Below are positions 17,381 through 29,557 of a stretch of DNA of 64,000 nt, one piece after another. This DNA is from Nitrospirales bacterium. Its GTDB lineage: Bacteria; Nitrospirota; Nitrospiria; Nitrospirales; UBA8639. Under the pieces are notes generated by a model. That model was not told the origin of the DNA. It made no database searches and saw only the letters and a list, made by a program, of their open reading frames with translations. The number at the start of each line of letters is the position of its first letter. Position 1 is the stretch's first letter. Both the position numbers and the translations under genes were made by a program. Location: the NCBI GenBank assembly GCA_963555755.3, contig OY820905.2:3104001-3168000 (forward strand). The letters run 5' to 3'.

Positions 17381-17733
17381 GGGGGTGACTGGCTTCGACG
17401 GGGAACAAGAGGTCAACGGTGCGTGTCGAGCTCTCGGAGTCTCGTAAAACCTTCGGGAAACATATAATTGCCAACGAACCATTGGCTCTCGCAGCTTAAT
17501 TGACTGCGACGTCTCTCCATTCTCTGTCTGCGGGCATGGAAGAGGCGCTACTTTAGCAGGCTGGTCCAATGCTGGTGCTCCAGCGGCTGCGGATGAGACC
17601 TTTCTGGGCTAGCGAACGCTCTAAGCCGGTCAGTGGGCGTGGGCGGACGCGAATTTTAAAACATTGACTACACACGTAGGACCATTGTGCTGAATGTCTT
17701 CGGACGCGGGTTCAAATCCCGCCACCTCCACCA
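17381..17733 (+). ncRNA. ssrA: tmRNA (tag reading frame ANEPLALAA at 17470-17499)
   Basis: 5' GGGGGTGACTGGCTTCGACG, 3' T-arm GCGGGTTCAAATCCCGCC-ACCTCCACCA, tag ending in LAA-stop. Confidence 0.96.
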
Positions 17734-27199: not shown

Positions 27200-28062
27200 C
27201 GGCGGAGCTGGAGTACCGAATCGCCTTTTTGGCGAGGGCTGTTTGAGCGGAGAGGTGGCTTTGCACCTCGGAGCGAGTTCCCGAGCCATCTATTCGGTGC
27301 GGAGGCGGAGGGACCCGTAGGGACGCGCACGGGCAAAACAATCGACATAGGTAGGCGGTCACCCGCTTTCCCTGTCACACCACCGTACGTACGGGTCCGT
27401 ATACGGCGGTTTGGTGGGTTAAGCGATTGGCCACCAGGAGAGACTTCTCTCAACTGGTCACCCCTCGCCGGGCTTTCAACTGGGCGGTTCGCCGCGAGCG
27501 ATTCGACACTTCCTCGTCAGTCCTTAGGGCTTCACCCCTATCCTCTGTCGGGAAGGCCAGGGTTAACTGGTTATTCAGCCGCTTGTCGCTCGTGAGTTCC
27601 GCTGCCTACATACCACTCCGCACCGTTCAGGCCTTCGTCCCTGCCGGGACTACTATGCCCTCTGCTGACTCCTCTCACCCGGTCAAGATAGATCACTCCA
27701 TCCTCAGTCTTGGTGCCAAGACAGACGAGAGGTCTCCCGAGGTAAGCTCAACCGCCTTCAGCGCACGACCGCCAGATTTACACCCAATGCCCTTGATGGA
27801 TATGGACTTCGTGAAAACCAGCTCACTCGTCCGACACTGACTGCCTCGTATCTGGTTCTTGTTCATCGGCCCGCGCCTTTGCTCTACGCTTCCTTCAGAC
27901 CCCGCCTCACGACGACGCCCTTGCGCTTCGCTATGACTTCACCTCCATCAGGTTGTCAAAGGGACTTGCACCCTCAAGCTGTTGAACATGCTCGGCACAC
28001 TGGTTTTGGGCACTTTTGCCGAAACAAAAGTGCCTCGTCTGCAGGGGCGAAACCCTGCATAT
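27200..28062. repeat. Multi-hairpin MITE/REP-like element split by the group II intron (halves 27200-27340 and 28001-28062)
   Basis: Hairpins ggcacttttgccgaaacaaaagtgcc and tgcaggggcgaaaccctgca; gagcgagttcccgagcc and gggacccgtagggac motifs; outer limits approximate. Confidence 0.6.
27341..28000 (-). ncRNA. ORF-less group IIC intron (660 nt)
   Basis: 5' GTGTGCCGAGCATG; domain V ACCGCCGTATACGGACCCGTACGTACGGTGGT with CGC triad (about 27379-27412); domain VI ending CCTATGTCGAT; no reverse transcriptase ORF. Confidence 0.9.
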
Positions 28063-28240: not shown

Positions 28241-29557
28241 ATGCGCGATGATGTGGTCATAATTGGTGGCGGGCTGGCGGGGTCGGAGGCGGCTTGGCAG
28301 GCGGCGGAGCGTGGGGCGAAGGTCACGCTTTATGAGATGCGACCAAAGAAAGAGACGGCGGCACACAAGACGAGCAATTTGGCTGAGATTGTGTGTTCGA
28401 ATTCTTTGGGATCCGCTGACCCGATTAGCGCACCTGGCATCTTGAAAGAAGAGATGCGGCTGTTGAACTCACTGGTCATGCGAGTGGCTGAATTGGCTCG
28501 AGTGCCGGCTGGCGCCGCGCTGGCGGTTGATCGCGATATCTTTGCACAAGAAATTACGAGAACGTTGGAATCGCATCCGAATATTCGGATCATTCGTGAA
28601 GAGATTCGAGAGATTCCGACTGATGCTCTTTGCATCGTGGCCACGGGGCCTTTGACGTCGGAAAGTTTGGCGCAGGCTTTGACCGAGTTGACGCATAAAA
28701 AGAACCTGGCCTTCTTTGATGCCATTTCCCCAATCATCGATGCGGAATCCATTGATATGGACAAGGCCTTTCGTGCCTCACGCTATGATAAGGGCGGCGC
28801 GGATTATGTGAATTGTCCGATGGATGAAGCCACGTATACGGCCTTTTACGATGCGTTAATGGCGGGAGAAAAAGTCGAATCCAAGGACTTTGAGAAAGTC
28901 CCGTACTTCGAAGGGTGCATCCCGATTGAAGTCATGGCAGAACGCGGGAAGCAGACCTTAACCTTTGGTCCGATGAAACCCGTGGGGCTGGTTGATCCGC
29001 GCACTGGCACACGACCGCATGCGGTGCTGCAATTGCGTGCGGAAAATCGGTACGGTTCGTGTTATAACATGGTGGGGTTTCAAACCAAGTTAAAGTATCC
29101 TGAGCAGCAGCGGGTGTTTCGCATGATCCCCGGTCTTGAGCGGGCCGAGTTTCTGCGGTTTGGGAGTGTGCATCGAAATACGTTTGTGAATTCTCCTGAG
29201 CTCTTGCGGAATACCCTGCAGTTGAAAATGCGAGGGACAACCTTTTTGGCGGGATGTATTATTGGGGTTGAGGGATATACTGAATCCGCGGCAAGCGGAG
29301 GTTTGGCTGGAATCAATGCCGCTCGTGCGTTGGCTGATTTACCCTTGATCACTCCTCCGTTGGCTACGGCACATGGGGCGTTGATCAATTATATTACCAC
29401 GAGTGATGCTCGGTATTTCCAGCCAATGAATACCAACTTTGGAATCTTTCCGCCGCTTCCCACGAAGATTCGCGACAAGGAACAGAAACGGCGCTTGATT
29501 CACCAACGTGCGATGGATGAGTTTCAAGCATGGAAGACGCAATTCGCGCTTTCCTAA
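28241..29557 (+). CDS. trmFO: tRNA (uracil-54-C5)-methyltransferase TrmFO (Gid)
   Basis: IGGGLAGSEAAWQ, EIVCSNS, YFEGCIPIE, FGPMKPVGL, GSVHRNTF, GVEGYTES, FQPMN. Confidence 0.96.
   Translation: MRDDVVIIGGGLAGSEAAWQAAERGAKVTLYEMRPKKETAAHKTSNLAEIVCSNSLGSADPISAPGILKEEMRLLNSLVMRVAELARVPAGAALAVDRDIFAQEITRTLESHPNIRIIREEIREIPTDALCIVATGPLTSESLAQALTELTHKKNLAFFDAISPIIDAESIDMDKAFRASRYDKGGADYVNCPMDEATYTAFYDALMAGEKVESKDFEKVPYFEGCIPIEVMAERGKQTLTFGPMKPVGLVDPRTGTRPHAVLQLRAENRYGSCYNMVGFQTKLKYPEQQRVFRMIPGLERAEFLRFGSVHRNTFVNSPELLRNTLQLKMRGTTFLAGCIIGVEGYTESAASGGLAGINAARALADLPLITPPLATAHGALINYITTSDARYFQPMNTNFGIFPPLPTKIRDKEQKRRLIHQRAMDEFQAWKTQFALS

Follow-up and report, generated by a model that had tools for sequence, protein, structure and literature searches.

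An intron that encodes no protein, lodged in a dispersed repeat, raises the question of how it came to lie there and by what means it multiplies. The case studied here lies in a 64,000-nt stretch of a Nitrospirales genome; this whole stretch is referred to as the window and its genome as G000. The original prediction held the element to be a non-autonomous group IIC ribozyme that uses a dispersed MITE/REP as its landing pad and is mobilized in trans. We consider it probable that the element is an internal-deletion derivative of a IIC intron with a conserved ribozyme, which likely relied on the reverse transcriptase (RT) of full-length sisters to spread by retrohoming and landed behind one hairpin of the repeat.

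Anatomy and fold of the window intron

The ORF-less intron occupies 660 nt on the minus strand, from the 5' end GTGTG at 28000 to the 3' end AT at 27341, and has four sister copies at 93.5-97.3% identity. Three Rfam models matched it above their gathering scores (D1D4-3, 134 bits; D1D4-1, 54 bits; Intron_gpII, 42 bits), and the predicted IIC anatomy, with its GTGTG start, CGC triad, AT end and short domain IV, was confirmed. Domain I (28000-27738, ~263 nt, bounds approximate) contains the D1D4-3 match at 27916-27746; in the consensus fold it has a single d3 stem-loop and no EBS2 arm, and it carries the AGGAA motif of the epsilon' bulge, which reads AGGCA in many relatives. The EBS1 region is located at 27820-27814. 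Domains II-III (27737-27630, bounds also approximate) were placed by the D1D4-1 match at 27706-27630 and by covariation. The shortened domain IV (27629-27412, ~215 nt) holds only the N-terminal extension of an RT fused to the last RT codons, owing to a deletion of ~1.2 kb near 27444-27438; the start codon of the extension is ACG in the window copy (27593-27591) and ATG in most other copies. Domain V (27411-27378) and domain VI (27377-27341, with a bulged A at 27348 and the terminal AT) were assigned by Rfam and the consensus fold, and the CGC triad of domain V (27408-27406) was invariant in 18/18 aligned copies. At 27412, just before domain V, an A replaces a G in the window copy, the sole case among the 18 aligned copies.

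In the consensus fold of the 18 ORF-less copies, pairing was kept in 99.3% of cells. Two-sided changes were found in 26 of 139 pairs as compared to 7.1 in shuffles, a lenient control in that the structure was derived from the same alignment and the sequences are related. Folding of domains I-III, the loss of which had been named as the mark of a decayed relic, is conserved with compensatory changes. By the features of sequence and structure that we tested, the element is best placed in group IIC.

On the minus strand, the upstream exon consists of a 10-bp hairpin (28034-28009) followed by CAAAACCA (28008-28001), so that the intron starts 8 nt behind the hairpin. These belong to the 5' half of the host repeat (28060-28001), which comprises a small hairpin, the target hairpin and the spacer CAAAACCA with IBS1. 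The 3' half forms the 3' exon (27340-27189, end approximate), and its first base, T, is IBS3. A second, different dispersed palindrome adjoins the host repeat at 28104-28075 on the same strand and had many separate matches by BLAST; this palindrome family is abundant, and many copies of the host repeat contain inserted hairpin modules from yet other families. A divergent gene of the GIDA family, which we take to be trmFO-like, lies outside the element at 28241-29557 on the plus strand. No sigma-70-like promoter was found on the strand of the intron. Elsewhere in the window a tmRNA gene is located at 17381-17733 (Rfam, 197 bits).

The host repeat is abundant, palindromic and restricted in lineage

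When rejoined, the two exons matched empty copies of the repeat across the junction, as had been predicted. The repeat had 112 profile matches in G000, about 91 of them with an empty and intact junction, so the lack of empty host repeats that was to count against the reading was not observed. The repeat is modular and about 190-225 nt in length. One copy gave a DNA fold with z=-3.3, and the outer arms of the target hairpin were paired at 84% in 67 copies versus 64% when shuffled. Copies are clustered, with 34 gaps below 2 kb versus 5 at random. The exact hairpin pattern occurred in 22/39 family members, including family genomes without an intron match, versus 0/361 others sampled from the phylum.

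The proposal that the repeat is a classical MITE did not hold. Among the 32 of 84 copies in which the 3' end could be placed, the longest exact terminal inverted repeat (TIR) word had a median of 4 nt, and target-site duplication (TSD) averaged 1.6 versus 1.9 in shuffles. No intact empty orthologous site of the window locus was found; decayed remnants of the repeat lie there in three congeneric genomes (G002, G003 and G005), and the contig of G006 ends at this point. The repeat is therefore old at the window locus. A terminator was also rejected, as the target hairpin is followed by CAAAACCA with no T run and no terminator was called on either strand. A comparison by eye with the BoxC/PIT consensus as printed in PMC4666352 found no match to its G/C triplex. 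In Rfam, nothing relevant matched a locus that contains three empty host repeats. Among 17 Y1 matches only one, a broken gene that carries its own palindrome, lay within 300 nt of a repeat copy, and no recurrent Y1 family was seen among the ORFs flanking the repeat. The best description of the repeat is REP-like, that is, a set of abundant, intergenic, clustered and lineage-restricted palindromes. It was absent from the viral contigs searched; among plasmid records, four from Acinetobacter have the core hairpin and nothing more of the repeat, and there is a hint that the hairpin motif has a function beyond this family.

Several side observations concern the same repeat. Acinetobacter baumannii records have the core hairpin plus CAAAACCAT but no other part of the repeat (L183:1501-1539). 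An IS family inserts ~25 nt downstream of the intron junction (6/7 ends found), at G000:C1:1962177, 3639836, 3298965, 666014 and 578523 and at C2:2176; one IS copy encodes a 792-aa DruA + DDE_Tnp_1 protein. A group II intron of another type (L179, G000:C1:3614300-3616205), with an AGC triad and a 559-aa frame with YADE, has its end within the host repeat but on the other strand, at a distance of 5 nt from the IIC junction.

Copies of the intron share one junction

BLAST identified five full ORF-less copies in G000, along with two relics, one of the 3' end and one, 45 nt long, of the 5' end. All seven (5/5 full, 2/2 relics) sit at one repeat junction with diverged flanks. The four ORF-less copies and two relics found besides the window copy answer the objection that further copies might be lacking, and they support the predicted role of the repeat as landing pad of a non-autonomous, multi-copy IIC intron. 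The 3' relic retains the C-terminus of the RT and is cut by a Mutator-family transposase; this stub is all that survives of the cognate RT gene in G000. We found no intact cognate RT in this genome: the best tblastn match had 43% identity and was a YADE frame of another intron type, and the 31 GIIM matches indicate that G000 is rich in other group II introns. Since an intact cognate RT is lacking there now and the copies differ from one another by 18-36 nt, the five are probably stranded at present. In two DNA runs, depth over the intron and repeat, which is not a measure of copy number, exceeded that of the flanks, and no empty allele of the window locus was seen. Much of the intron is covered by contigs from two metatranscriptome runs, although these contigs give neither strand nor level. 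The exact 27340-28001 joint was absent from them, which is uninformative on splicing, and the exon joints that were seen carry other letters and come from other copies of the repeat.

Another type of ORF-less group II intron, with an AGC triad, was noted twice, at G000:C1:318367-318455 and 491922-492008, inserted in genes that resemble those of IS transposases. One empty repeat (L182, G000:C1:3780361-3780449) has 8 extra bases at the junction that resemble the 3' end of the intron and may be a trace of homing that was aborted or of loss that was imprecise.

Eight of the 61 genomes searched had matches. In G005, G006 and G018 the same junction is occupied by copies or relics, of which some have a decayed RT. 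When GTDB was scanned for the junction, 36 loci turned up in 7 assemblies: six are of Nitrospirales/Nitrospirota, and one, labelled Alphaproteobacteria, may be mis-binned since it had only 2 repeat matches. From this distribution the host of the window would probably be one of the Nitrospirales. The 36 loci were selected by a pattern containing CCAAAACCA, and the unbiased sets are the BLAST sets of G000, G061 and G062. In G061, a Nitrospirales MAG, BLAST and flank retrieval gave 41 units at 34 sites, at least 34 ORF-less (mini) and at least 7 RT-coding, counts that are lower bounds with 40/55 candidates scored. The predicted RT-encoding parent was thus located at the same junction in other genomes, although not in intact form in the window genome. 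The 7 RT-coding units have YADD frames of 432-435 aa. All three RTs scanned passed TIGR04416, and the one tested further had only the Pfam domains RVT_1 and GIIM, without an endonuclease domain; its closest solved structure in the PDB was the GsI-IIC RT (450 bits).

The junction was canonical at 32 of the 34 G061 sites; the two remaining insertions are in the other strand of this repeat and follow a different hairpin + GCCA. In G062, 13 of 15 sites were canonical, one had a disturbed 5' exon and one lay behind an unrelated hairpin. Flags of a non-canonical junction on 1014762, 3779209 and L089 were dismissed by eye as misses of the pattern. Five G061 sites were stacks of two or three units, three of which mix mini and RT-coding units. 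The stacks are clean head-to-tail arrays in which adjacent minis differ by 1, 4 or 6 nt; nesting of one intron inside another was checked for and not seen. An identical partner exists for 10 of 31 G061 mini units. Two ORF-less units, the third of L068 and that of L067, are split by inserts of 931 and 1655 nt, and the former carries a small palindrome-bounded element in domain IV.

A hairpin and about four base pairs of EBS1 probably define the target

The original prediction described a perfect 7-bp match between EBS1, in a loop, and IBS1. TGGTTTT at 27820-27814 is indeed complementary to AAAACCA, and ~5 nt of it do lie in the loop, but the last two U of the 7-mer belong to the d3 stem, where alignment columns 192-193 are paired to 184-183. 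EBS1 and site could be read in 60 of 69 rows. Across these, EBS1 alleles covaried with the site: UGGU, the core at 27820-27817 in the window copy, with ACCA; AUGG with CCAT, one base downstream (7 rows); and CUGG with CCAG (3 rows). Past four bases the AUGG and CUGG alleles were mostly unpaired, and in 3 rows UGGU copies were inserted at sites with just four pairs. Because alleles and site shift in step, the supported pairing appears to be about 4 bp and not 7. A mismatch of EBS1 and site (0-1 bp) was present in 6/60 rows, one G000 copy included, and these six need either later recombination or relaxed pairing. The first base of the 3' exon was T in 6/6 G000 junctions, while G, C and A also occurred in G061; EBS3 was assigned by position only. 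A sister IIC intron at 73% identity (L003 and L010, in G027) has an intact RT and lies behind a different pair of repeated hairpins with its EBS1 changed to match; the EBS1 of the sister lineage, UAGA, pairs with TCTA/TTTA (2 rows).

The concentration on one repeat might require no specialization at all. An ordinary hairpin-seeking IIC intron would arrive there if the repeat were simply the commonest source of a hairpin + AAACCA in these genomes, and 65 of 79 such sites in G000 do fall in the repeat. Since the repeat supplies this share, a longer pairing could alone account for much of why UGGU copies prefer it. Three insertions on other hairpins (L058, L066 and L079) and some relatives with RTs at 67-70%, which by eye lie behind other repeat-like hairpins, agree with such an intron. 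Under the 4-bp rule, however, only 83 of 362 hairpin + ACCA sites in G000 lie in the repeat, yet 7/7 G000 events occurred there, and lineages with a changed EBS1 (AUGG, CUGG) stay on the same hairpin with a shift of one base. On balance we find an unspecialized intron unlikely, though less so than the other alternatives.

Relatives of the RT in metagenomes (n=80) were read for the same feature. Ten were at 82-94%, and all 7 of these with a readable flank were in the repeat. Among the 70 at 48-70%, an ACCA end was found in 0 of the 58 with a 5' flank read, and most lay, by eye, behind terminators or attC-like sites. Some class C relatives with ~68% RT identity (L107-L109, L143, L145 and L146) lie behind other repeat-like hairpins that are not terminators. 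Retargeting of class C introns to repeats may recur.

Occupancy of the repeat in G061 is biased by replication direction

The orientation of the introns in G061 flips at dnaA. Among the 86 repeats listed, and with the terminus assumed to be antipodal, 27/48 co-directional repeats were occupied versus 4/38 head-on ones (Fisher p=1.1e-5); without the terminus zone the values were 25/45 versus 1/31. Both opposite-strand insertions are also co-directional with the fork. Such a bias is what one would expect of an intron that inserts without an endonuclease into the lagging-strand template, toward which class C/IIC insertion is biased according to the available text of PMC8919778. G000 had the same trend without significance (4/43 co-directional versus 2/60 head-on, p=0.23), and the window copy is oriented head-on.

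The copies could instead have multiplied at the level of DNA, by gene conversion or recombination between repeats or as cargo of a mobile repeat. Their mosaic make-up would fit: in domains I-III the identity of G061 minis is 97% with full-length copies of G061 and 92% with minis of G000, whereas the junction region groups the minis together (84% versus 62%), and the EBS1 of some copies is unfit for their own site. As domains I-III follow local full-length copies while the junction region follows the minis, we infer recurrent exchange between minis and local parents. Multiplication at the DNA level sits poorly, however, with the replication-orientation bias, with exact junctions amid diverged flanks and with tandem stacks that mix mini and full units. 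Insertions off the canonical junction still obey hairpin + IBS1, and the repeat has no TIR or TSD. We therefore consider this route very unlikely.

The minis of four genomes have one ~1.2 kb deletion in common. The only other junction class seen is one of 651 nt, in which the breakpoint differs. Most inner branches in a tree of the copies were weak, and it gives no order of events. That each ORF-less copy is a dead relic, deleted in place from an inserted full-length intron, might be read from the end relics and the copies with a decayed RT that share this junction (the G000 stub, G005, G006) and from the 18-36 nt by which the G000 ORF-less copies differ. The shared breakpoints, with only one other class, largely refute it, identical copies at different loci and stems kept by compensatory changes also speak against it, and we give it hardly any credence.

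A model for spread of the ORF-less intron

Under retrohoming with the RT of full-length sisters, the intron RNA would be spliced, and the cognate RT would bind it by way of the 5' part of domain IV that it has kept. The resulting particle would then recognize the hairpin extruded in the single-stranded lagging-strand template, aided by about 4 bp of EBS1-IBS1 and a loose EBS3-IBS3 pair, and reverse splicing at the site would be followed by copying from a nascent-strand primer. Hairpin and IBS1 would survive insertion, and because they are left intact later copies could stack at the same junction. We strongly infer that mobilization occurs in trans.

A bolder proposal is that the lineage is locked on one repeat hairpin and constitutes a third stable target class of class C introns beside terminators and attC. 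Its ORF-less members would behave in a SINE-like way: they would cross species, swap ribozyme segments with local parents, retarget by one-base shifts of EBS1, and move by the RT of an unrelated intron where the cognate RT is lost. This is speculative, and we would not expect it to hold in full.

Relation to known systems

ORF-less IIC introns and the mobilization of ORF-less introns in trans are already known, and we expect neither new chemistry nor a new route of mobility, so that the case is less surprising than it might be. Our literature search, run on articles without their supplements, returned no account of the host repeat or of introns in it. The system offers a natural experiment on IIC target choice: a single hairpin family provides about 100 nearly equivalent sites in each genome, the site shifts to match each of three EBS1 alleles, and there is a strong bias with the direction of replication. 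In the available text of their review, Zimmerly and Semper 2015 (PMC4424553) name no class C targets other than terminators and attC and describe ORF-less introns as rare in bacteria; against this, ORF-less units dominate in G061 (at least 34 versus at least 7).

One close likeness is to the terminator-targeting IIC introns. Like them, the lineage has an endonuclease-less RT, closest to that of GsI-IIC. GsI-IIC itself uses diverse hairpins as targets and has ORF-less copies, which could lower the novelty here. The CGC triad, AGGAA and a short EBS1 are shared with B.h.I1, O.i.I1 and GsI-IIC as these are described in the accessible parts of PMC1702495 and PMC4424553. There the stem-loop lies 3-11 nt upstream of the splice site, a range that includes the 8 nt of the window intron. 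The 3-4 bp of EBS1-IBS1 given for class C/IIC introns in the same portion of Toor 2006 (PMC1702495) and the lagging-strand-template bias in the text available from PMC8919778 are likewise common to both. Unlike terminator-targeting introns, the present lineage targets a hairpin inside a dispersed repeat, with CAAAACCA behind it in place of a T run, and its ORF-less units outnumber the RT-coding ones in G061. As with IIC-attC introns, a class C sub-lineage is tied to one family of repeated DNA hairpins, but the hairpin differs, and the attC-like junctions among our matches, as judged by eye, belong to RTs only ~50% identical.

The repeat shares with E. coli BoxC/PIT an intergenic palindrome and a third, purine-rich tract after the stem; the BoxC consensus, in the section of PMC4666352 available, is a 37-nt G/C-rich motif, whereas the host repeat is ~200 nt, modular and has T/A tracts. 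T. elongatus TeI3c, mobilized by the TeI4c RT, likewise has many ORF-less copies beside few RT-coding relatives with nearly the same ribozyme; from the available text of PMC3898094 and PMC8643678, TeI3c/TeI4c are IIB1 introns with long EBS pairings, in contrast to the hairpin-targeting IIC intron of the window. HYERs, ssDNA-hydrolysing ORF-less IIC ribozymes of about 650 nt, resemble the present element when compared by description only, as given in the accessible text of 10.1101/2024.08.31.610620, and the 650-660-nt ribozymes with natural EBS1 variants found here are candidates for HYER-type assays.
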